Positions 12,785 through 59,908 of a DNA stretch of 64,000 bases are shown piece after piece. Position 1 is the stretch's first letter; every line of letters starts with the position of its first letter. The translations under genes were made by a program, and so were the position numbers. The DNA is from an uncultured Burkholderiales bacterium. Its GTDB lineage: Bacteria > Actinomycetota > Acidimicrobiia > IMCC26256 > JAGPDB01. The notes below the pieces were generated by a model. It was not told the origin of the DNA and did not search any database. It saw only the letters and a program-made list of their open reading frames with translations. The DNA lies in NCBI GenBank assembly GCA_964561855.1, contig CAZLQP010000004.1, positions 1,341 through 65,340 on the forward strand. The letters are read 5' to 3'.

Positions 12785-12861
<77 letters not shown>

Positions 12862-13324: not shown

Positions 13325-13460
13325 AGTGCAGTTCTCCGGTCTTTTACTATTCAGTGTTTACATTATTTGAATCAGCCAAAGAGCTAGTTTAGAGACTAAT
13401 TTTTGCTTGGTTTTCTCTGAAATCTAAGGAAACTGACCTAAATCAGATTTATTATTGGTG

Positions 13461-13521
13461 TCGTCGGGCTTATAACCCGAAGGTCGTTGGTTCAAATCCA
13501 ACCCCCGCCACCAATTAAACC
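13461..13521 (+). repeat. Duplicated 3' portion of the tRNA-fMet gene (att-like direct repeat of 12809..12869)
   Basis: 61 nt identical to 12809..12869 except one base in the anticodon loop (CTCATAA vs CTTATAA). There is no 5' acceptor/D-arm, so it is not a functional tRNA. It is followed by its own hairpin ACCGCAC..GTGCGGT plus a T-run (13519..13546). Confidence 0.85.
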
Positions 13522-18937: not shown

Positions 18938-19576
18938 ATGACTTTAAAGGTTATCTCTAAGATTTGGTTCTCAATCCTTGCTCTTTCTGTTGCATGGGTG
19001 ATACCGGTCCAGGCGGTGTTGAATTTCCAGGAAGAAACCGGGATGTTTGCTGAGAATTATGCTCGGGTGTTTAATATGTTTTGGTTCTTTACAATTCTGT
19101 CTAATATCTTGGTGGGCTACGTAAGTTATCGAATTGTATTAAGTGGGGTCGAACAAGGTGCGAGGTTCAATGTTGCAAAGCACACTGCTTTAGTTGCTAT
19201 AACTGTTACGGGAATTGTTTATCATTTGCTCTTAGCTGCAGATGCGAATCTCAGTGGCCTAAATGTCGTTACCGACTTTTTCTTACATACTTTTATTCCG
19301 CTTGGTTATGTACTTGGCTGGATAATCTTCAACAATCGTGGTCAAGTGAATGCGAAGGTTGCAGGAAAGTCTTTGTTGTTTCCTATTATTTGGGCAGTGG
19401 CTGTCATGATTCGCGGACCGATTGTTGATTATTATCCATACAATTTTATGGATGTAAGAGATCTTGGGTATGCAGAGGCGCTTATAACCATGGGATTTGT
19501 AACTTTGTTTTTTGTAGCCTTAGCCTTCGGCTACTTTCTTCTCGACAAACTCTTAGAGAAAAGGTCCGTCCTCTGA
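18938..19576 (+). CDS. Integral membrane protein (FAR-17a/AIG1-like / Pr6Pr-like, tentative)
   Basis: Six hydrophobic helices. FWFFTILSN and DYYPYNFMD resemble that family as I recall it. The stop codon TGA (19574..19576) lies inside the left arm of the 19557..19645 palindrome. Confidence 0.55.
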   Translation: MTLKVISKIWFSILALSVAWVIPVQAVLNFQEETGMFAENYARVFNMFWFFTILSNILVGYVSYRIVLSGVEQGARFNVAKHTALVAITVTGIVYHLLLAADANLSGLNVVTDFFLHTFIPLGYVLGWIIFNNRGQVNAKVAGKSLLFPIIWAVAVMIRGPIVDYYPYNFMDVRDLGYAEALITMGFVTLFFVALAFGYFLLDKLLEKRSVL

Positions 19577-19645
19577 ATCTTGCGATAAATTGCACTAATG
19601 TCGCTAATACAAGTTATCGCAAGATTCAGAGGACGGACCTTTTCT
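19557..19645. repeat. Perfect 31-bp inverted repeat (family D, GGTCCGTCC core) acting as bidirectional terminator between convergent genes
   Basis: AGAAAAGGTCCGTCCTCTGAATCTTGCGATA (19557..19587) is the exact reverse complement of 19615..19645, with a 27-nt spacer. It overlaps the stop codons of both flanking genes. Confidence 0.85.
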
Positions 19646-20691
19646 CAGTCGTCGGATTTGGTCATGTGGAAGATGCCGGTTGCATTGCCTGCATCAAAAG
19701 CTAGATCGACGCTACCATCTTCTTTGTTTTTTCTAGTGATGAATTCAAAGAATGAGCCTGGAACTTCTTTATGCACAATCTCATTGTCATCTAATCTGAA
19801 ACTTCTAGTGATCGGATCTGCTTTGTATGCGGTCTGCATTATATTTCCTGTCTTAGAAACCTCGACAGTATCTTTCATTGGATAACCGAGTTGTTTTTGT
19901 TCTTCAGATAATGCCATTACGTCAGCAACTCTATCTGTCGCATGGTTAAAAGCATTTCCTTCAGTTGCAATCCAAGCCATTTCTGCAGAATGCTGTAACA
20001 GCTCGTTATAATCTGACAAAAGTGGTACAGGATGTTGACGATCAAAAGCGCGAGCGATGTTTTGTAAAAGATTCCCACATTTATTTCGTGGAAGGTATCC
20101 GTTTTCACCAATGAAACTCAGATCATCAAGAGTCTCTTGGTTAAGAGGATCGATTGATTCTTCAACAACATCAATTACAGCTTTTTCAAAATCATCATTT
20201 TCGAACTTGTCAGGATGAAGTTCACTCACAAAATATTGAGGTATCACTTGAGGATAATCAGCATGAGTGTAACTTCTACCTGTCATCTTGAGTTTTGTTA
20301 AAGGATATGTCTCATTGTGGAAATATCCGAGTGGAATTAAGATTCGCGTAAGCGATTCCTCTCCTACAGGTAAATCTCCGTTTCGTAGATGGTCTACTGT
20401 TCTCACTGCGCCGTGATCCAAAAAAATTGTTTCTCCCTCAGAGTGTTTTTGCTCAAAGTACTTCTGTGCATGAGGTACACGTTCGAGCAAATCAGCATAC
20501 AAAACTAGAAACAAAGAAAATGCGATATGGGCCCTTGAAACGTTCTCATCTCCGAAAGTACCAAGAGGTTCAGGGATCAGAATCGTTTGAGAGAATTCGT
20601 CGACTCTTTTGCCGCCAATTATTTCTCGGATGATATTAAAAACTGTAATGTCAGTGCTAAATAATGACATTTCGTTGGAACTGTTTTCCAT
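19645..20691 (-). CDS. hglS: DUF1338-family protein, 2-oxoadipate dioxygenase/decarboxylase (HglS)-like
   Basis: About 350 aa with the FLDHGAVRT metal-binding motif characteristic of DUF1338/HglS. Genomic context is other lysine-catabolism genes. Confidence 0.6.
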   Translation of the reverse strand: MENSSNEMSLFSTDITVFNIIREIIGGKRVDEFSQTILIPEPLGTFGDENVSRAHIAFSLFLVLYADLLERVPHAQKYFEQKHSEGETIFLDHGAVRTVDHLRNGDLPVGEESLTRILIPLGYFHNETYPLTKLKMTGRSYTHADYPQVIPQYFVSELHPDKFENDDFEKAVIDVVEESIDPLNQETLDDLSFIGENGYLPRNKCGNLLQNIARAFDRQHPVPLLSDYNELLQHSAEMAWIATEGNAFNHATDRVADVMALSEEQKQLGYPMKDTVEVSKTGNIMQTAYKADPITRSFRLDDNEIVHKEVPGSFFEFITRKNKEDGSVDLAFDAGNATGIFHMTKSDD

Positions 20692-36535: not shown

Positions 36536-37285
36536 ATGAAACCTAGGATTTTGGTTACTTCGCGTCCAAGTGACAATGCAGCGCCGATTGGCGAGTCTCC
36601 ATATCGAGAATATGTTTACCAAAGCTATGTAAATGCTTTGCGACATCAAGGTGCGATTGTGACGATTGCTCCGATTACAGAACCTGGTGATGTATCTGTG
36701 TTGTTATCAGCTGTTGATGGACTTGTTGTTACAGGTGGGCGAGACTTTAACCCTCAGTGTTATGGGCAAGATAAGATCGATGAAACGAGCGAACCTCATG
36801 ACGATTTGGATCGCAGTGATCTAGCTTTTTTAAAACATGCTAAAAAAATGAAACTTCCTACTTTAGGAGTTTGTCGGGGAATGCAAGGATTGAATATTGC
36901 CTGTGGTGGTACTTTGGAACAACACATCGCCGGTAAACGTGCACATCATCCGGTTGAGCCAGAAACTTTTGCAGAAAAAGTTGCATATCGACATATGGTG
37001 ACTCTTGATGCAACTTCGTGGTTAGCAAATACTTATATGACGAATAGGGTTGAGACAAACTCGATTCACCATCAGTGTGTAGATAAGTTAGGCGATGGTC
37101 TAAGTATTGTTGGTCGTGCTGACGATGGGACAGTTGAAGCGATTGAATCTACAACGGATTGGTTTGCAATCGGTACGCAGTGGCATCCCGAATTAATGGA
37201 TAATGCAGAGCTGCTCTTTGGAAGATTTGTAGAGGACGTATACAAACACCGCTCCCTCAACGATCGCCGCGACCTCGCCTCTTAA
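36536..37285 (+). CDS. puuD: Class-I glutamine amidotransferase, gamma-glutamyl-GABA hydrolase (PuuD / peptidase C26)-like
   Basis: GLVVTGGRD, nucleophile elbow LGVCRGMQ, and GTQWHPE histidine motif. Its own TAA stop abuts the REPIN at 37286. Confidence 0.75.
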   Translation: MKPRILVTSRPSDNAAPIGESPYREYVYQSYVNALRHQGAIVTIAPITEPGDVSVLLSAVDGLVVTGGRDFNPQCYGQDKIDETSEPHDDLDRSDLAFLKHAKKMKLPTLGVCRGMQGLNIACGGTLEQHIAGKRAHHPVEPETFAEKVAYRHMVTLDATSWLANTYMTNRVETNSIHHQCVDKLGDGLSIVGRADDGTVEAIESTTDWFAIGTQWHPELMDNAELLFGRFVEDVYKHRSLNDRRDLAS

Positions 37286-37357
37286 CCGGAGGACTGACCC
37301 TCCAAAAGGGACGAATCGCCTGAGCGATTAGTCCCTTTTGGAGGGTCAGTCCTCCGG
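37286..37357. repeat. REPIN (inverted REP doublet), family A
   Basis: CCGGAGGACTGACCCTCCAAAAGGGACGAATCGC-CTGA-GCGATTAGTCCCTTTTGGAGGGTCAGTCCTCCGG. 72 bp, with one mismatch in a stem of about 34 bp. Confidence 0.9.
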
Positions 37358-37366
37358 TAGGATGTA

Positions 37367-46431: not shown

Positions 46432-46438
46432 TTTATTT

Positions 46439-46482
46439 CTATAGGGTCTGACCCTATTTACATATAGGGTCAGACCCTATAG
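46439..46482. repeat. REPIN-like doublet, family C (ATAGGGTCTGACCCTAT)
   Basis: CTATAGGGTCTGACCCTAT-TTACAT-ATAGGGTCAGACCCTATAG, between convergent pyrB and a small membrane gene. Near-identical to 52573..52616. Confidence 0.88.
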
Positions 46483-46485
46483 AAA

Positions 46486-46746
46486 TTAGTAGCCGAGCTT
46501 GCGGTCTTCTTTTTCGGCAGCTGTTATTGCGTAGCCAAAAATTATGGGTAGTGGCAAGATGATGCAGCTTGCAGTAAAGCTGATAATCGACACCCAGGTA
46601 AGCCAGACTGGCCAACCAGTTGCTAAGCAAACGAAAAAAGCGACTATCGATATAACCATCAGACCATAGCCAATGCGCTTAAAGAAGCTGACTTTTTGCC
46701 TTATAGCTTCACGTTTTTCTAAGACCGGATCATCCATTAGCCTCAA
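46486..46746 (-). CDS. Small membrane protein (2 TM)
   Basis: 86-aa ORF with two long hydrophobic helices. Confidence 0.5.
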   Translation of the reverse strand: MRLMDDPVLEKREAIRQKVSFFKRIGYGLMVISIVAFFVCLATGWPVWLTWVSIISFTASCIILPLPIIFGYAITAAEKEDRKLGY

Positions 46747-47313: not shown

Positions 47314-48006
47314 TTAGTATTGCTGGTTTACCAGCATCATCAATCGACGGTTAGTAGAGTCAAGCACAGCGCGCGCAATTGCGTCCGCTTCGTTTCCTTG
47401 ACGAACGATTGCAGAACCAGAAACTATTTGTTCTTCAGGTGGAACAACAAAAATGATTGTCACGACTGCAACGTCGCTTCCGCCAATGCGAGTAACCAAT
47501 GCGGAGTCAACATCAAGAGATTCTGCTAATGGCTCGAGCTGGCGAAGAGCATCGAGTGTAGCTTGTGCAATCAAGCGATGCCGTGCAGCTGATGCAACAG
47601 AACCTTCTGCAAAACCTAAAGCTTGTGTTTCGTTGTGTTCTAAGGAAACTTTTACAGTAGAGCGCAGTCCTGTAGATTCAGAAGTGATGGAAAGAATTTT
47701 CGGTCGGAAATCTTTATCGAATAGAAATTCTGTTTCAGGTGAATCGATTTGCACGATAGAAATTCGGCGTCGATCAATGTCATAACCGAAACTCGCAATT
47801 GCAACAGATTGGATATCTCGAACTAATTGCTTGGGCGCCTTATTTGGAGCTGCAACGATGTGTACTTCACTTGGCTCGCCATCATATCCTGCAACAATTC
47901 GAGCAGCCTTAATGTCTGGAAGTCTGCGCAGTTCTTTTTCTAGCAAAATTATTGGATCGTTACCTTCGTATTCTGCTACTGAGATAACGTTGTTTTGCTC
48001 TTCCAT
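47314..48006 (-). CDS. Conserved hypothetical cytoplasmic protein
   Basis: 230-aa ORF with good coding character; no motif I can name. Confidence 0.5.
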   Translation of the reverse strand: MEEQNNVISVAEYEGNDPIILLEKELRRLPDIKAARIVAGYDGEPSEVHIVAAPNKAPKQLVRDIQSVAIASFGYDIDRRRISIVQIDSPETEFLFDKDFRPKILSITSESTGLRSTVKVSLEHNETQALGFAEGSVASAARHRLIAQATLDALRQLEPLAESLDVDSALVTRIGGSDVAVVTIIFVVPPEEQIVSGSAIVRQGNEADAIARAVLDSTNRRLMMLVNQQY

Positions 48007-48189
48007 GTGCTTCCCCTCAAACCGATTGCTAATTAGTACATTCTACACCAAAGTGGTACAACTATGTAAGAGTTTTCTTCAGTTATCCCTCATAATCGCC
48101 CATTTTTGCCGGTTTGATAACGACTCTAGCTGAACTTGAACCAAAATTCCATCTCTGAAAACGTCGTATTTATATCTAGTTCCGTTATC

Positions 48190-48307
48190 GAGTCTTGGCT
48201 GTGGTTGTGTCTCGAATTGTGTTTCGCGCAGCTTCGCTGACGAGACGAGCCTAAGGTCTCGACTCTCGCTGCAAATGCAATTCGAGACACAACCACAGCC
48301 AAGACTC
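48190..48307. repeat. Perfect 30-bp inverted repeat with structured 58-nt spacer in the ileS upstream region
   Basis: GAGTCTTGGCTGTGGTTGTGTCTCGAATTG (48190..48219) is the exact reverse complement of 48278..48307. The spacer contains CGAGAC..GTCTCG and GCAGC..GCTGC sub-hairpins. GC-rich relative to its flanks. Confidence 0.85.
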
Positions 48308-48362
48308 TCGTTACTGAATATCAATAGGAAAGTAAACAACTAAGTAACTAGACTTGGTACTT

Positions 48363-51300
48363 ATGTCATCTAACGCAAAACAAAACAATATCTATCCTGA
48401 GGTCACTTCTTCTCCAAATATTCCTGCGATAGAAGAAAGCATTATTGAGTTTTGGAATGACAACAAAATATTTCAAGCATCTGTCGAAGGTAAGAAGAAC
48501 AATCCTAAAGACGAAAAAGATCAAGGTGAATATGTTTTTTATGACGGACCTCCATTCGCAAATGGGCTCCCGCACTATGGTCACTTGATTACAAGTTTTG
48601 TTAAAGACACAGTTCCTAGATATCAAACAATGAAAGGTAAACGTGTTCCACGTCGTTTCGGATGGGACTGTCATGGTTTGCCTGCAGAGATGTTAACTGA
48701 AAAAGAACTTGGAGTTTCTGGTCATATTGCGATCAACGAGTATGGCATCGATAAGTTTAACGATGCTTGTCGAACTTCAGTATTACAGTTCACGAATGAA
48801 TGGCGTCACTATGTAACACGAATGGCGCGTTGGGTTGATTTTGATAATGACTACAAGACACTCGACATAGATTATATGGAAAGTGTTATTTGGGCTTTTA
48901 AACAACTCCATGAAAAAGGTCTGGTCTACGAAGGTATGCGCGTGTTGCCTTATTCTTGGGCTGCAGAAACAGTGTTATCGAATCATGAGACCAAACTCGA
49001 TGATTCATATCGTGAACGCGACGATCCAGCGTTGACTGTCGGATTTAAAGTTCGAGAGTTTTCAAAAGAAGCGCAAAAAAAGATCGACATTGTTCCACAA
49101 GGGATGTTAGATGGTGCTGAGATAAATATTCTCGCATGGACAACAACACCTTGGACGTTGCCTTCGAATTTAGCTTTGGCAGTTGGTCCTGAAATCGAAT
49201 ATAGCGTCGTTGTTGGTGAAGACAATGAAAATCCAACTGCATTTATTTTGGCAACGGCAATGCTTGAAAAATATGAGAAAGAATTGCAGGGATTCAAGCC
49301 AGTTACTACCTTGCAAGGTTCAGATCTTGTAGGGACAACCTATGTGCCGATGTTTGATTACTTTGCTGATACTCAAAATGCTTTCCAGGTCTTTGGTCCA
49401 GATTTTGTAACAACTGAAGATGGAACTGGTATTGTACACCTAGCTCCTTATGGTGAAGATGACTTTGCATTATTAACTGCAAATGATATTGAAATTCCTG
49501 TAGCAGTAGATGCTAAAGGCGAATTCGATTCAAGAGTTCCAGACTATCAAGGTCAACTTGTTTTTGATGCTAATGCAAATATTGTGCGCGACTTAAAAGA
49601 GCGTGGGGTAGTACTTCGTCATGATACATATCGCCACTCTTATCCTCACTGTTGGCGTACTGATCAGCCATTGATCTATCGCCCAATGAGCTCTTGGTTT
49701 GTTGAAGTAACGAAAATCAAAGATCGAATGTTGGAACTCAACAAAGATATCAAGTGGATACCCGATCATGTTCAAGAAGGTGCGTTCGGGATGTGGCTTG
49801 AAGGTGCTCGTGATTGGTCGATTTCTCGGAACCGTTTTTGGGGTTCACCAATTCCTGTCTGGAAATCTGATGACCCCAATTATCCACGAATGGACGTCTA
49901 TGGTTCCCTCGATGAAATCGAACGCGATTTTGGTAAACGTCCAACAGATCTACACCGTCCGGAAATAGATACTTTTACTAGACCTAATCCAGATGATCCG
50001 ACTGGAAAATCAACAATGCGCCGAGTTGAGGAAGTGTTTGACTGTTGGTTCGAATCAGGATCGATGCCATTTGCGCAAGTGCATTATCCATTTGAAAACA
50101 AAGAGTGGTTTGATACTCATTTCCCAGGAGATTTTATTGTTGAATACATCGGCCAGACGCGCGGATGGTTTTATACTTTGCATGTTTTAGCAACAGCTTT
50201 GTTTGATCGAGCAGCGTTTAAAGAATGTGTATCTCATGGAATTGTTTTGGGTTCTGATGGAAGAAAAATTTCTAAACGTTTAAAGAACTATCCAGATCCT
50301 CTAGAGATGTTTGACGAGTTTGGATCTGATGCTATGCGCTGGTTATTGCAAAGCTCAGCTATATTGCGCGGTCAAAATCTGATTGTTGATCGAGATTCAT
50401 TTGCGACTGCTACTCGAAAAGCTATCTTGCCTTTATGGAACTCTTATTACTTCTTTACGTTATATGCCAATAGCGATGGAATAGAGGCGAAACACATAAC
50501 TCAGTCTTCCAATATTTTGGATACTTACATTTTGGCAAAGACACGTAAATATATTGAAGAGTTAACTGTGTCGATGGATGCAAATGATATGTTCAAAGCA
50601 AGTGAACTTACGGAATCTCATTTTGATGTTTTAACGAACTGGTTTATTCGTAGAAGTCGTGAACGTTTTTGGCGACATGAAAAAGATCAAGACAAACAAG
50701 ATGCCTATGACACTTTGTTTACTGTATTGAATCTGATCTGTCGTGCAGTAGCGCCATTGTTGCCCTTGGTGTCAGAGAGTATATGGCGTGGTCTCAATGC
50801 ACAAGATGTTGAGCAGAACAATGGATTGAGCGTTCATCTCGAGACTTGGCCTCTAGAAGATGCACAAGCAATTGCGGAAGATGACGAGTTGATCGCTGCA
50901 ATGGATATGGCGCAAGAAATTTGTTCGAACGCATTATCTATCCGACGTGCAAATAATTTACGTACTCGACTTCCATTAAGCGAGGTTGTCATTTCAGGTC
51001 CGAATGCAAAACGTGCGGAGCGATTTTCCGACATCATCCGTGATGAAGTAAATGTGAAAAATGTGGTTGTTCAACTTGATGCAACAGAGCATGGAAAACA
51101 AAAACTGAATTTGGTGCCAAGTGTTATGGCTCCACGTCATGGTGAAAATGCAAAGAAAGTATTTGCCGGATACAAAAAGGGTGACTGGCAATTAGTTGAT
51201 AGCGTGATGACTGTTGGAGGAATAGAACTTCGGCCTGATGAATATGCTTTGGTGTTAGAACCAGAAAATGCTGATAGCTCTAGAGCATTAGATGACCGCG

Positions 51301-51620
51301 AGACAATTGTTACCTTGAATCTTGAAGTGACAAGTGAGCTTGAACTCGAGGGAATAGCTAGAGACGTTATTCGAGCTACGCAAGAGGCAAGAAAGACTGC
51401 GGATCTCAACATTACCGACCGAATTGTTTTGGAAGTTCAAGGCAACGAAAAAGCAGTCCAAGCAGTCGAAAAATTCGAAAACCTAATTTCCAAAGAAATC
51501 CTCGCCAACTCCATCTCCGCAATCTCCGGAGGACTGACCCTCCAAAACGGACAAAACGGAGAAGGTATAGTTGAAGTGGATGGAGCAGTCTTTAGTGTAA
51601 ATGTTGCCGTGAGTAAATAG
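48363..51620 (+). CDS. ileS: Isoleucyl-tRNA synthetase
   Basis: About 1085 aa with HIGH-type GLPHYGHL and KMSKS-type GRKISKRL; editing-domain and anticodon-binding regions of the expected length. ATG 48363 is preferred to TTG 48354. Confidence 0.95.
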   Translation: MSSNAKQNNIYPEVTSSPNIPAIEESIIEFWNDNKIFQASVEGKKNNPKDEKDQGEYVFYDGPPFANGLPHYGHLITSFVKDTVPRYQTMKGKRVPRRFGWDCHGLPAEMLTEKELGVSGHIAINEYGIDKFNDACRTSVLQFTNEWRHYVTRMARWVDFDNDYKTLDIDYMESVIWAFKQLHEKGLVYEGMRVLPYSWAAETVLSNHETKLDDSYRERDDPALTVGFKVREFSKEAQKKIDIVPQGMLDGAEINILAWTTTPWTLPSNLALAVGPEIEYSVVVGEDNENPTAFILATAMLEKYEKELQGFKPVTTLQGSDLVGTTYVPMFDYFADTQNAFQVFGPDFVTTEDGTGIVHLAPYGEDDFALLTANDIEIPVAVDAKGEFDSRVPDYQGQLVFDANANIVRDLKERGVVLRHDTYRHSYPHCWRTDQPLIYRPMSSWFVEVTKIKDRMLELNKDIKWIPDHVQEGAFGMWLEGARDWSISRNRFWGSPIPVWKSDDPNYPRMDVYGSLDEIERDFGKRPTDLHRPEIDTFTRPNPDDPTGKSTMRRVEEVFDCWFESGSMPFAQVHYPFENKEWFDTHFPGDFIVEYIGQTRGWFYTLHVLATALFDRAAFKECVSHGIVLGSDGRKISKRLKNYPDPLEMFDEFGSDAMRWLLQSSAILRGQNLIVDRDSFATATRKAILPLWNSYYFFTLYANSDGIEAKHITQSSNILDTYILAKTRKYIEELTVSMDANDMFKASELTESHFDVLTNWFIRRSRERFWRHEKDQDKQDAYDTLFTVLNLICRAVAPLLPLVSESIWRGLNAQDVEQNNGLSVHLETWPLEDAQAIAEDDELIAAMDMAQEICSNALSIRRANNLRTRLPLSEVVISGPNAKRAERFSDIIRDEVNVKNVVVQLDATEHGKQKLNLVPSVMAPRHGENAKKVFAGYKKGDWQLVDSVMTVGGIELRPDEYALVLEPENADSSRALDDRETIVTLNLEVTSELELEGIARDVIRATQEARKTADLNITDRIVLEVQGNEKAVQAVEKFENLISKEILANSISAISGGLTLQNGQNGEGIVEVDGAVFSVNVAVSK
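51526..51558 (+). repeat. Family A REP arm embedded in frame within the ileS coding sequence
   Basis: CCGGAGGACTGACCCTCCAAAACGGACAAAACGGA matches the 33-nt left REPIN arm (58026..58058) with about 4 mismatches. It is read as S-G-G-L-T-L-Q-N-G-Q-N-G. No right arm is present. Confidence 0.8.
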
Positions 51621-52130: not shown

Positions 52131-52585
52131 TGAAACGAATTTCAGACTTCTTTGTCTTGTTGGCACAAGTGATAATCGGTTTTATATATGTTTCCTTCGC
52201 AGGTCCTTGGTCGGAAAATATAGTGATACTCCTAGTAGGTACAGTATTGATCGGTACTGGGATCGCATTGGGTATTCGCGGGATTTATGATCTACGTAAA
52301 AGTTTCGCTGTGCATCCCAAGCCTCACGAAAAAGCTGAGTTCATACAGACTGGGATCTATTCCTATGTAAGGCATCCAATGTATAGCGGTTTGATTTTGG
52401 TAGCGATTGGGTTCTTACTTGTTCGCTATAGTCAAGATCTACTCGTGATGTTTTTCTTTGCAATAGGATATTTAGCAATAAAAATCTATATTGAAGAGAG
52501 GTTTTTAAACTCATTCTTTGAAGATTACCGAGAATATTCAAAGAAAACTGGATGTATCTTTCCAAAACGCCTCTATAGGGTCTGA
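52130..52585 (+). CDS. Isoprenylcysteine carboxyl methyltransferase (ICMT)/phospholipid methyltransferase-family membrane protein
   Basis: 4 TM; GIYSYVRHPMYSGLIL and EERFL motifs. The stop TGA lies in the loop of the family C REP. Confidence 0.75.
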   Translation: MKRISDFFVLLAQVIIGFIYVSFAGPWSENIVILLVGTVLIGTGIALGIRGIYDLRKSFAVHPKPHEKAEFIQTGIYSYVRHPMYSGLILVAIGFLLVRYSQDLLVMFFFAIGYLAIKIYIEERFLNSFFEDYREYSKKTGCIFPKRLYRV

Positions 52586-52616
52586 CCCTATTTACAAATA
52601 GGGTCAGACCCTATAG
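52573..52616. repeat. REPIN-like doublet, family C
   Basis: CTATAGGGTCTGACCCTAT-TTACAA-ATAGGGTCAGACCCTATAG. Pairing extends to GCCTC/GAGGC (52569..52620). Confidence 0.88.
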
Positions 52617-52647
52617 AGGCGCTGTAGCTTCGACTAGTATTTAAGCC

Positions 52648-58025: not shown

Positions 58026-58097
58026 CCGGAGGACTGACCCTCCAAAAGGGACGAATCGCATGAACGATTCGTCCCTTTTGGAGGGTCAGTCCTCCGG
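58026..58097. repeat. REPIN, family A (perfect 33-bp stem)
   Basis: CCGGAGGACTGACCCTCCAAAAGGGACGAATCG-CATGAA-CGATTCGTCCCTTTTGGAGGGTCAGTCCTCCGG, located between divergent guaB and argF. Confidence 0.92.
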
Positions 58098-58160: not shown

Positions 58161-59048
58161 ATGGTTAAACATTTGCTAGATATTGACGATTTGTCGATCG
58201 ATGAAGTCAATCAGGTTTTAGATTTTGCATTGAATCCTGACGAGTCTAAGCCATTGAAAGATAAAGGCGTTGCGCTAATTTTTCAAAAGCCATCTTTACG
58301 CACACGCAACTCAATGGAAATGGCAGTGGTCCAATTAGGCGGACATCCCGTCTACATTCAAGATATGGAAGTTGGAATTGATTCACGTGAAAGTATTGAA
58401 GATGTAGTGATGTCTATGGCGCAATATCATGAGATTATTTGTGCGCGAGTTTTTGATCACCTAGTGCTCGAGAGAATGGCAAGCGTTGATGTTGCTCCCA
58501 TCGTTAATTTGCTGTCTGATTCCTCGCATCCGATGCAGGCACTAGCTGATCTATTGACAATGAAACAAGAATTCGGCGACTTGAAAAATAAGCGTGTTGC
58601 ATATATTGGAGATCCAAATAATGTTGCTAGATCACTAGCGATTATCGCAAAAATGTTTGGTATGGAATTTACGATTGCTACGCCAAATGAATATCGTTTT
58701 AGCGAAGATGATTGCAGAGTAATTGATAAATATGGAGGCATCGATTTAACAACTGACGATCCTAAAATCGCCGCGAAAAATGCTGACGTTTTGTACACCG
58801 ATGTTTGGGTGTCAATGGGTGATGAAGAAGAATCAGATATTCGCAAAAGAATGTTCGATGGCTATTGTATCGACTCACAATTGATGTCTGTCGCGAATGA
58901 AAATGCGATCGTGATGCATTGTCTTCCTGCTCATCGAGGACAAGAAATTACTGATGAAGTAATGAGATCAACGCAATCAAGAATTTTTCTTCAAGCACAA
59001 AATCGCATGCACTCGGCCAGAGGCCTCCTCCGCCTTCTGGGGGTCTGA
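58161..59048 (+). CDS. argF: Ornithine carbamoyltransferase
   Basis: KPSLRTRNSME, HPMQALADLLT, DVWVSMG, HCLPAHRGQEI. ATG 58161 is preferred to 58140 given the promoter/SD geometry. The last codons CTG GGG GTC TGA are family B REP sequence. Confidence 0.85.
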   Translation: MVKHLLDIDDLSIDEVNQVLDFALNPDESKPLKDKGVALIFQKPSLRTRNSMEMAVVQLGGHPVYIQDMEVGIDSRESIEDVVMSMAQYHEIICARVFDHLVLERMASVDVAPIVNLLSDSSHPMQALADLLTMKQEFGDLKNKRVAYIGDPNNVARSLAIIAKMFGMEFTIATPNEYRFSEDDCRVIDKYGGIDLTTDDPKIAAKNADVLYTDVWVSMGDEEESDIRKRMFDGYCIDSQLMSVANENAIVMHCLPAHRGQEITDEVMRSTQSRIFLQAQNRMHSARGLLRLLGV

Positions 59049-59099
59049 TCCCCCAAAACAGACAAATCGCATTTGCACCTTTTGGGGAATCAGACCCCC
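59039..59099. repeat. REPIN-like doublet, family B, spanning the stop codons of both convergent genes
   Basis: GGGGGTCTGATCCCCCAAAA-(21 nt)-TTTTGGGGAATCAGACCCCC, with one mismatch between the arms. Confidence 0.88.
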
Positions 59100-59908
59100 A
59101 GATCAAAGGATTGGATTAGGGTGAGGACTTGATCGATCGAATCCGGGTGAGCACAAACTAGCGAGGTGGGGCAGAGCTCGCCTGTGTCGGGGTCGATATC
59201 GAGAGATTCGAATTTGTCGCCATTAGGTTTTCTTATTTCTGCTCCGGCAGCTATTGCACAAGCAGTTCCGGCAGCTATTTCAGCGCCATAATCATTGTGA
59301 ACAATCATTGCTTGGACTCCACCTTTTGCAAAAGAGACCCAGTCCGCAGTTGGCGCCCATGTAGAAAGTACTCGTCCAGTATTTCTTACTAAGTATTCCC
59401 GAAACCTAAGGGCCTCTTCTTGCTCATCATCTTTTAGATAGCCAATCGACATACCAAAAGTGCTTTTGAGTAAATCAACGACAGGGGTAACGGCAGTGTT
59501 TTGTTCTTCACCAACTACACCACAGTGAAAAGTTTTTAACTGGCCTTGTCCGATAACTCCCAAAACAGGTTTGTTATTTTTTGTGAGTGCAATACAACTT
59601 CCATACAGAGGCATTGCATAGGCGAAATTATTTGTTCCATCTAACGGGTCGATATGCCATGCATAATCAGAATTTTGTTGGTAGGTTTCGAGTTCCTCGC
59701 CAAAGATAGTTATATCTGAAAAATTTTCTATCAAAATATCACGAATTATCTTTTCGGCTTCGATGTCGGCATCAGTGGTGACATCGTGGCCTTGTTCGGC
59801 AATGTTTTTTTCTAACAAAGTGCCAAAGCGTGAATCTAGGTATTCAATTGCATGGTCGATAGCTTCACAGGCCACTTTTTTTGCTTGTTCAATGTCGATG
59901 TCAGTCAC
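59090..59908 (-). CDS. Inositol monophosphatase family protein (SuhB/ImpA/HisN-like)
   Basis: EELE..., WHIDPLDGTNNF, and a WAPTADW region, 272 aa. The C-terminal ...DLGV* is encoded by the REP arm. Confidence 0.82.
   Translation of the reverse strand: MTDIDIEQAKKVACEAIDHAIEYLDSRFGTLLEKNIAEQGHDVTTDADIEAEKIIRDILIENFSDITIFGEELETYQQNSDYAWHIDPLDGTNNFAYAMPLYGSCIALTKNNKPVLGVIGQGQLKTFHCGVVGEEQNTAVTPVVDLLKSTFGMSIGYLKDDEQEEALRFREYLVRNTGRVLSTWAPTADWVSFAKGGVQAMIVHNDYGAEIAAGTACAIAAGAEIRKPNGDKFESLDIDPDTGELCPTSLVCAHPDSIDQVLTLIQSFDLGV

Follow-up and report, generated by a model that had tools for sequence, protein, structure and literature searches.

A hairpin with a sequence-variable stalk and a conserved tip upstream of ileS in one clade of low-GC Acidimicrobiia

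Introduction

Among the systems described so far, the closest counterpart to the locus studied here is the T-box leader (RF00230) of ileS, the gene encoding isoleucyl-tRNA synthetase, which in its translational form is the described actinobacterial state (PMC1262725). The subject of our study is a 118-base hairpin (positions 48190 to 48307) that lies upstream of ileS in 64 kb of DNA from an uncultured low-GC bacterium of the Acidimicrobiia; this whole stretch, at its full length, is called the window throughout. Like the T-box leader, the hairpin is a structured element just upstream of ileS in the same phylum, and other Acidimicrobiia (L004, L009, and L016) have their ileS T-box at the same position. 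The hairpin exists as described, and none of the known families that we could test accounts for it. Our preferred reading, to which we give a probability of roughly 40%, is that of a vertically inherited, clade-specific structured nucleic-acid element, likeliest a small noncoding RNA or RNA domain, that would combine a stalk conserved only in its pairing with a sequence-specific branched tip.

Several other described systems resemble the element in part. RNase III processing stalks and autoregulatory leader hairpins, such as the stalks of rRNA precursors or the rnc and pnp leaders of E. coli, likewise contain a helix of at least 2 turns that is free in sequence while its pairing is kept, and this helix flanks or presents a functional part of the RNA; unlike them, our element is known from sequence alone, and the 57-nt "cargo" that it encloses matches no known RNA. 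Bacterial miniature inverted-repeat transposable elements (MITEs) and palindromic units (ERIC/IRU, Correia, and REP/BIME) are similar as palindromic intergenic units of around 120 bp that form a long hairpin if transcribed, but the element is single-copy in the data searched, occupies a fixed orthologous locus, lacks a convincing target-site duplication, and has a conserved interior with diverged ends, which is the reverse of a MITE. It shares long, G+C-richer, and perfect stems without T-runs with the U-tract-less "I-shaped" terminators of actinobacteria and with other hairpins of the window itself; however, those have loops of 2 to 7 nt, form families, and mostly sit at gene 3' ends, whereas the element has a conserved branched tip of 48 to 58 nt and lies between divergent genes. 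Finally, inverted repeats made by template switching (PMC8794818; PMC13100816) are comparable because the arms of the element are perfect in one lineage and decayed in relatives, changes are coordinated on both arms, and one relative shows a symmetric duplication. Template switching is nevertheless a mutational mechanism and not a function, and the event at this locus is not reconstructable since the arms cannot be aligned.

Results

An inverted repeat around a conserved core

The hairpin is composed of the following parts:

48190 to 48219, no strand: left arm of a perfect 30-bp inverted repeat (the outer stalk), with the 30-mer GAGTCTTGGCTGTGGTTGTGTCTCGAATTG
48221 to 48277, no strand: conserved core of 57 nt (the "spacer" of the repeat), GTTTCGC...GCTGCAAATG, modeled as a three-way junction of the closing helix P1 with P2 and P3
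48229 to 48239, no strand: mini-hairpin P2, CAGC-TTC-GCTG (C-GAA-G on the minus strand), with a varying stem and a loop that is kept
48242 to 48265, no strand: hairpin P3, GAGACGAG-CCTAAGGT-CTCGACTC, with a nearly invariant 8-bp stem and a variable loop of 7 to 8 nt
48278 to 48307, no strand: right arm, the exact reverse complement of the left arm GAGTCTTGGCTGTGGTTGTGTCTCGAATTG

An earlier, sequence-only reading of this DNA had described a perfect 30-bp inverted repeat around a gap of 58 nt together with a spacer that itself folds. Both descriptions are accurate: the arms have the coordinates given above, and the proposed CGAGAC/GTCTCG and GCAGC/GCTGC pairings exist alongside CAGC-TTC-GCTG and GAGACGAG...CTCGACTC. 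The repeat can be followed inward for 5 more positions to 35 nt per arm at 94% (48190 to 48224 on the left, 48273 to 48277 plus the right arm on the opposite side), and the 2 non-Watson-Crick positions found there are G.U wobbles on the plus strand. Over a stretch of 141 nt, the predicted RNA fold reaches −80.2 kcal/mol on the plus strand (z = −11.05) and −77.6 kcal/mol on the minus strand (z = −10.8), and folding of the element with DNA parameters gives the same picture (z = −13 and −11). Within the window, GAGTCTTGGCTGTGGTTGTGTCTCGAATTG has no match other than the two arms even when up to 3 mismatches are allowed, and shuffled versions of the window contain none at all.

As the same reading had noted, the element is G+C-rich (0.53 at 48200 to 48299, versus 0.33 to 0.42 in the flanks) and lies in a gap between divergent genes. 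This gap of 356 nt separates a gene for a protein of 230 amino acids (47314 to 48006, minus strand) from ileS (48363 to 51620, plus strand). The absence of a T-run after the element was also described correctly, and we found no terminator-like or sigma-70-like site there; the distance from the end of the element to the ileS ATG at 48363 is 55 nt.

Orthologous loci and distribution of the core

The exact lineage of the window is known from one assembly, and the perfect arms were read there only, while several independent assemblies from related lineages contain homologous but imperfect stalks. Among species-representative genomes, a metagenome-assembled genome (MAG) of the Acidimicrobiia (L001) comes closest, with 72% identity of IleS over a 400-residue query and the same divergent gene pair. 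Homologues of the 230-residue protein then gave orthologous contigs of nine further lineages, including L083, L084–89, L090, L091, L092, L093–95, L096/98/99, and L101. The contigs for P0005 and P0008 had no usable upstream DNA, and a search with IleS for further members of the clade gave distant fragments only. By identity of the IleS N-terminus, the window forms a clade with L092 on one side and L083 and L084 on the other (92% inside each pair, 84% to 85% across pairs), and the remaining lineages are 68% to 82% identical.

A counterpart of the core was found at the same place in L083 and L084–89, where it reads GTTTCGC...TTC...ACGAG-CGAGCC...GGTCTCGACTCT-GCTGCAAATG and where the base of the stalk is again 55 nt from the ileS start (core pattern string: GGTCTCGACTCTYGCTGCAAATG). 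The core is thus seen in both branches of the clade at one locus, yet it is missing from L092, the closest relative of the window, which has only a 6-bp hairpin. This distribution fits vertical inheritance with a single loss in L092.

Other relatives vary at this site. L001 and L096 have hairpins unrelated to the element that have only an outer GTTGGGYG/CRCCCAAC stem in common with each other, L090 has a classical structure of A-tract, hairpin, and T-tract, the tails of the short L092 hairpin and of the L096 hairpin are U-rich, and L091, L093, and L101 show no significant structure at this site. Homology of the element with the hairpins of L001, L096, L090, and L092 was rejected, as no similarity stayed significant once multiple testing was taken into account. 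Hairpins are hence common at this position without being required, and only one sub-clade has the conserved tip.

In L090, an open reading frame (ORF) of 62 codons is called in the ileS upstream region (2242 to 2430), and the A-tract/hairpin/T-tract structure (around 2200 to 2240), which resembles a bidirectional terminator, follows this ORF directly before the ileS TAAACT. The L089 assembly is broken exactly inside the core (L089 position 1; compare L084 to L088). The inverted repeat probably interrupted the de Bruijn graph here, which recalls that such elements are under-represented in short-read assemblies.

The core is conserved in sequence

Between the window and L083 or L084, the core is 84% to 86% identical, as compared to 60% to 68%, or up to 84%, for other conserved intergenic blocks, 32% to 38% for the columns of the stalk, and 39% to 45% for four-fold degenerate sites of ileS, which are saturated. 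The difference between the core and these saturated sites indicates that the core sequence is under purifying selection, with conservation above the neutral level in noncoding DNA, as expected of a structured noncoding RNA. Since the core is 57, 54, and 56 nt long in the three lineages and reading frames are broken, a coding role is excluded and a small ORF in the core was rejected. The predicted functional center of the element is therefore the spacer rather than the arms, which reverses the emphasis of the sequence-only reading.

The core can be folded into three helices. P1, which closes the tip, consists of a G.U pair, three U-A pairs, a bulged C, and then G-C, C-G, and either G.U or A-U. 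The stem of P2 differs between the window (CAGC/GCUG), L084 (CGGC/GCCG), and L083 (CCC/GGG), while its UUC loop (GAA on the other strand) is constant. The predicted folds of the window and L084 have the same architecture of P1, P2, and P3, and all three versions including that of L083 are a stalk with a branched tip, so that a three-way junction is a plausible model. A hammerhead was rejected because its CUGACGA occurs in the window only (GGGACGA in L083, CCGACGA in L084).

A covariance model of the core (R1) was searched against 580 kb that comprised the window, 80 ileS loci of other Actinomycetota, and all relatives. It scored 82 to 93 bits in the core-bearing loci and had no other match; a weak hit in L100 (19 bits) is not a homologue and falls on a generic hairpin after a small gene. 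The core has no other match in the window or in viral contigs, phage, or plasmid collections either, and no other copy of P3 exists in the window or the searched loci. An operator regulon was rejected since no further GAGWCGAG-N7/8-CTCGACTC was found in the window or these loci.

The arms of the stalk change together

The arms of the stalk cannot be aligned across lineages: both the identity of orthologous arms and their complementarity across lineages amount to 14 to 19 positions, against a shuffle baseline of around 18. Within each lineage, Watson-Crick complementarity of the two arms is 30/31 in the window, 23/35 in L083 (reached by 30 of 2,000 shuffles), and 23/36 in L084 (reached by 10 of 2,000). 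Arms that are unalignable between lineages and yet complementary within each must have changed together, i.e., they co-evolve within each lineage. Either selection on pairing or the copying of one arm onto the other by replication template switching can produce such joint change, as can the two combined, and template switching could mimic the covariation signal that the significant complementarity despite sequence turnover represents.

A single template switch can be enough to generate or mend a perfect stem (PMC8794818), and the process is known to homogenize and expand inverted repeats near promoters (PMC13100816). In L083 (around 2200 to 2300, in ileS sense), both strands of the closing helix are duplicated symmetrically, with TGCTTCGC beside TGTTTCGC on the left and GCTGCAAAT beside GCTGTGCAACAAAT on the right, which looks like the footprint of a template-switch expansion of the palindrome as this mechanism predicts. 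Because neutral sites are saturated, the 30-bp mismatch-free stem of the window is not an old neutral relic. Together with the imperfect stalks of the relatives, this bears out the earlier suggestion that a stem free of mismatches reflects recent origin or strong constraint, and the perfect stalk most likely arose in a recent homogenizing event by arm-to-arm template switching.

The clade has lost the ileS T-box

The surroundings of the hairpin contain the following features:

47314 to 48006, minus strand: conserved hypothetical gene of 230 codons, divergent from ileS, without Pfam, NCBIfam, or PDB sequence match
48040 to 48045, minus strand: block A, TAGAAT, putative proximal −10 element of the 230-codon gene, followed by the Shine-Dalgarno (SD) sequence GAGGGGAAG; CTAATTGGTACATTCTACACCAAA is conserved in every lineage
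48123 to 48128, minus strand: block B, TAGAGT, conserved TAnnnT and putative upstream promoter of the 230-codon gene, at an aligned position in all lineages
48316 to 48325, plus strand: block GAATATCAAT, located between the stalk and the putative ileS promoter; shared by the window, L084, and L092, with a variant in L083
48349 to 48354, plus strand: −10-like TAnnnT hexamer TAGACT of the putative leaderless ileS promoter, 8 nt before the ileS ATG
48363 to 51620, plus strand: ileS, with the Pfam domains tRNA-synt_1, Anticodon_1, and DUF5915

The sequence-only reading had failed to find a T-box consensus at this locus, and model-based searches agree. A scan of the whole window with Rfam at gathering thresholds returned tRNAs only. 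In a permissive scan of 47950 to 48450 (E ≤ 10), no T-box was found and the only match was a plant microRNA-precursor model, far below its threshold (47 bits versus 180), which is explained by the long hairpin. The same permissive mode did detect the ileS T-box of a Mycobacterium (L045; 35.9 bits, E = 2e-6) as a positive control, and T-boxes were likewise found directly before ileS in the Acidimicrobiia L004, L009, and L016 (2286 to 2500) at 44.6 to 49.4 bits. The latter have an AUC specifier, the GGGTGGTACCGCG motif (variants GGTCATCACC and CAGGGTGGTACCGCG), and AGGAGCC as their ribosome-binding site. In the window, by contrast, the DNA before ileS has no AUC specifier, and GGGTGGTACCGCG is absent from 48007 to 48362 with up to 3 mismatches allowed. 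No helix could sequester an SD sequence that does not exist, no terminator-like site is present, and a TAnnnT lies 8 nt before the ATG instead. A T-box remnant was rejected because the element has neither a T-box motif nor similarity to the T-boxes of the relatives. Known housekeeping hairpin RNAs (SRP/4.5S, 6S, tmRNA, and tRNA-like RNAs) match no family model here, with nothing tRNA-like or tmRNA-like found, and the Rfam scans also reject any other Rfam family.

All ten lineages of the low-GC clade have a TAnnnT hexamer (TAGACT, TAAACT, TAGAAT, TAATAT, or TAAAAT) that ends 6 to 8 nt before the ATG or GTG of ileS, and none has an SD sequence. TANNNT is the actinobacterial −10 motif; in mycobacteria, where many mRNAs are leaderless, it predominates as the −10 element and is centered 7 to 12 bp before the start site (PMC3898074). 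In this clade, ileS looks leaderless, and the hairpin would therefore lie upstream of its promoter (−57 to −174 relative to the ileS transcription start) and not in a leader. In the three lineages with the core, the block GAATATCAAT sets the distance between the base of the stalk and the ileS start at 55 nt. As an observation of its own, the ileS T-box known from Mycobacterium and from other Acidimicrobiia has been lost in the low-GC clade, where the SD-less TAnnnT start is found instead, which suggests that ileS became leaderless.

On the other side of the hairpin, two intergenic blocks are strongly conserved in all relatives, CTAATTGGTACATTCTACACCAAA (48030 to 48053) and CCATTTTTGCCGA...CGACTCTAG (48100 to 48129). 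Blocks A and B within them are probably tandem promoters of the 230-codon gene, with TAGAGT, TAGGGT, TAAGGT, TATAGT, and TAGGCT as the variants of the block B hexamer across all lineages, and block A may be a bidirectional promoter as its plus strand reads TACATT. If these assignments hold, the element would lie between two divergent sets of promoters. A second and imperfect inverted repeat (79%; GATAACGACTCTAG / CTAGTTCCGTTATC, 48116 to 48129 / 48176 to 48189) adjoins the stalk at its left base and shares positions with block B; L083, L084, and L092 have not kept it.

A single-copy element among unrelated hairpins

The 20-mers of the arms are absent from 185,579 species genomes (one per species) and from the viral contigs of IMG/VR. 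In 241 million metagenome records, they have two chance matches, in which the similarity stops at the 20-mer itself and a partner arm is lacking, and a blastn search of the whole element against phages and plasmids gave no match. The 2-bp TC found on both flanks is a trivial match and no convincing target-site duplication, and L092 is not a clean empty site since it has a different short hairpin there.

Besides the element, the window contains at least 7 other hairpins with stems of 23 to 42 bp, mostly at gene 3' ends and without T-runs. These long and often perfect hairpins (among them 19556 to 19646, 37285 to 37358, 46435 to 46486, 52568 to 52621, 58026 to 58097, and 59036 to 59102) have loops of 2 to 7 nt, belong to at least two sequence families (CCGGAGGACTGACCCTCC... 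and CTATAGGGTCTGACCCTAT...), and mostly sit at gene 3' ends or between convergent genes, placed as terminators would be; the one at 58026 to 58097 lies between divergent ORFs. The arm of our element is unlike them, in agreement with the earlier statement that it is unrelated to repetitive extragenic palindromic (REP) families. Membership in a REP-like hairpin family was rejected because the element shares no sequence with such a family, has no small loop, and is not at a gene 3' end. A clustering of GANTC sites (4 per 200 nt, in the top 1% of windows) was dropped because two of them are mirrored in the arms.

Discussion

In our preferred reading of the element as a small structured RNA, the 57-nt tip, with P1, P2 and its fixed UUC/GAA triloop, and P3 and its invariant 8-bp stem, would be the working part and would be read sequence-specifically by a protein or RNA partner. 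The stalk of 30 to 35 bp would be a generic double-stranded handle that closes the molecule and could serve in nuclease protection or as an entry site for RNase III, and such a generic role would explain why the stalk is conserved in its pairing only. If transcribed, its 30 perfect pairs (35 with wobbles) exceed the uninterrupted double-stranded RNA of at least about 20 bp that marks a substrate of RNase III. The stalk would be kept paired by selection together with arm-to-arm copying through template switching during replication, and a recent event of this kind in the lineage of the window may have made it perfect. The RNA would most likely be around 120 to 135 nt long and would be encoded 55 nt upstream of the apparently leaderless ileS in an otherwise promoter-free middle of the gap. 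That it is transcribed, from which strand, that it acts as an RNA, how its junction is built, and that template switching made the arms perfect are all inferred. Among the four options offered by the sequence-only reading, a stable small RNA gene or an RNase III-processed element is still the most viable one.

A number of observations weigh against a small RNA. No conserved promoter or terminator is found beside the element on either strand, and the indications of its strand conflict: G.U wobbles fit the plus versus the minus strand in a ratio of 3:0 in the window and of 2:6 in each of L083 and L084 (pooled, 12 for antisense versus 7 for ileS-sense, which is not significant), and the minimum free energy favors the antisense strand by 17.8 kcal/mol in L083 and by 10.1 kcal/mol in L084 but the sense strand by 2.7 kcal/mol in the window. 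DNA folding parameters agree with these strand energies, so that the strand better fitting the structure in two of the three lineages is the one antisense to ileS; the antisense strand of the unrelated L096 hairpin also folds better. The alignment of ileS upstream regions that had been proposed earlier as a check for covariation shows that P2 pairs exchange, but formal covariation in the core is not significant with three sequences (one double change, equaled by 257 of 500 shuffles), and RNAalifold favors a different inner pairing with a closure of the GCAGC/GCUGC type. The invariant P3 stem would also suit a protein-binding DNA palindrome. Lastly, the loss of the core in L092 and the lack of any hairpin in L093 and L101 show that the element is dispensable.

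The main rival, possible though doubtful, is an explanation at the DNA level in which the core, and especially the invariant palindrome GAGTCGAG-N7/8-CTCGACTC, would be a regulator site shared by the divergent promoters, while the repeat would be a by-product of repeated expansion and homogenization by template switching, seeded by this palindrome, that is near-neutral or acts as a supercoil-responsive cruciform. The expansion and homogenization of repeats at promoters is documented (PMC13100816). Moreover, the element lies between the minus-strand TAnnnT (48123 to 48128) and that of ileS (48349 to 48354) and outside the predicted transcripts, the P3 stem is conserved in sequence and beyond pairing, the wobble counts have no consistent strand preference while both strands of the window fold about equally well, and other lineages have unrelated palindromes at the same site. 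However, P2 and the stalk keep their pairing during sequence turnover, which a protein that binds duplex DNA would not need, and with a nonpalindromic center of 48 to 58 nt the extrusion of a cruciform is unlikely. A second operator-like copy is lacking in the window and the searched loci, and the protein encoded by the divergent neighbor has no recognizable DNA-binding domain. Long palindromes are usually lost, and that three lineages still have one although their synonymous sites are saturated suggests selection on pairing. We consider it unlikely that the stalk is a terminator or insulator that stops divergent or antisense transcripts and thereby shields the ileS promoter or the 230-codon gene from read-through. 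The window does have its other hairpins without T-runs, mostly at gene 3' ends and once between divergent genes, several relatives have unrelated hairpins at the same position (with A- and T-tracts in L090 and U-rich tails in L092 and L096), and the energy favors the strand antisense to ileS in L083, L084, and L096. This function would nevertheless explain only the stalk and not a branched tip of 57 nt that is held at around 85% identity; in the window as in L083 and L084, the stalk lacks a T-run behind it on both strands, and a G+C-rich hairpin with a U-run, as in intrinsic terminators, was found on neither strand of the element, although it might act as a U-less "I-shaped" terminator. Divergent genes need no terminator without extra promoters, none of which is conserved, and L093 and L101 manage without any hairpin.

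The leading idea of the sequence-only reading, a cis-acting riboregulator in an ileS 5' leader that replaced the ancestral T-box, appears improbable. Its upstream position, the T-box that other Acidimicrobiia have there, and the loss of this T-box in the clade make a replacement plausible, and the three wobbles in the inner stalk and P1 of the window fit the ileS-sense strand. Yet the lack of an SD sequence and the TAnnnT 6 to 8 nt before the start in ten of ten lineages are a leaderless signature (PMC3898074), the element shows no evident alternative pairing with the start region, the ileS-sense strand folds 10 to 18 kcal/mol worse in L083 and L084, and the sister lineage L092 as well as L093 and L101 do without the element. 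A mobile insertion of the MITE or REP type, another earlier proposal, has been largely refuted and has a very small residual probability. In its favor are the size of around 118 bp, the perfect terminal inverted repeats, a G+C content above that of the surroundings, absence from L092, and the flanking TC dinucleotides, whose 2-bp match is trivial. By the test that had been named along with this proposal, namely the presence of further copies, it fails because neither the window, as the 64 kb of the source genome that could be read, nor the collections of species genomes, metagenomes, viral contigs, phages, and plasmids yielded one. The element also occupies the same orthologous position in three lineages, with a conserved core and diverged arms, which is the opposite of terminal inverted repeats that are bound by a transposase.

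If the element is a small structured RNA as we prefer to think, it would be a new and very narrowly distributed structured RNA family in an uncultured, genome-streamlined actinobacterial lineage. Its locus is also one from which the ancestral tRNA-sensing T-box has disappeared and at which ileS is apparently leaderless, which would make it a case for the rewired regulation of an essential synthetase. A more specific form of this idea, which we regard as rather improbable, is an undescribed class of small structured RNAs with a long, sequence-free double-stranded stalk and a conserved three-way-junction tip. It would have arisen in a streamlined Acidimicrobiia clade once the ileS T-box was gone and would control, through a dedicated partner, the output of one or both flanking genes. 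This partner might be RNase III or the divergent protein of 230 residues, which has weak fold matches to double-stranded RNA-binding and PUR-type proteins. The pairing of a long helix that persists through complete sequence turnover, with one lineage caught perfectly homogenized, bears on the joint upkeep of RNA stems by template switching and selection; a DNA palindrome that grew around a binding site would be ordinary.

The divergent gene and further observations

The divergent protein of 230 residues has 823 homologues across the Acidimicrobiia, and no recognizable DNA-binding domain or match to a Pfam family, NCBIfam family, or PDB sequence was found. Its AlphaFold (AF2) model (predicted local distance difference test score, pLDDT, 80; predicted template-modeling score, pTM, 0.70) comprises an alpha-beta N-terminal domain and two beta-beta-beta-alpha units. 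Foldseek matched this model to the LeuA regulatory domain (E = 7e-6, template-modeling (TM) score 0.35) and then to proteins with tandem double-stranded RNA-binding domains (dsRBDs) or PUR repeats at TM scores of around 0.2. An hhalign comparison with the dsRBD of E. coli RNase III, using an approximate sequence of this domain, gave a probability of 0.25% and thus no support. With TM scores of around 0.2 and no match to PDB or Pfam profiles, the assignment as a dsRBD protein was rejected and is kept as a lead only.

In one MAG (GCA_963169585.1), two contigs with different neighbors, L096 and L097, encode homologues of this protein that are identical to each other. On L097 there is no ileS nearby and a DUF559/MTES_1575 gene is found instead; the doubling could be a duplication, strain mixing, or a misassembly. 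Elsewhere in the window, a partial tRNA match at 13445 to 13502 (31.2 bits, model positions 9 to 63), 590 nt downstream of a full tRNA at 12785 to 12858, may be a tRNA fragment or pseudogene.

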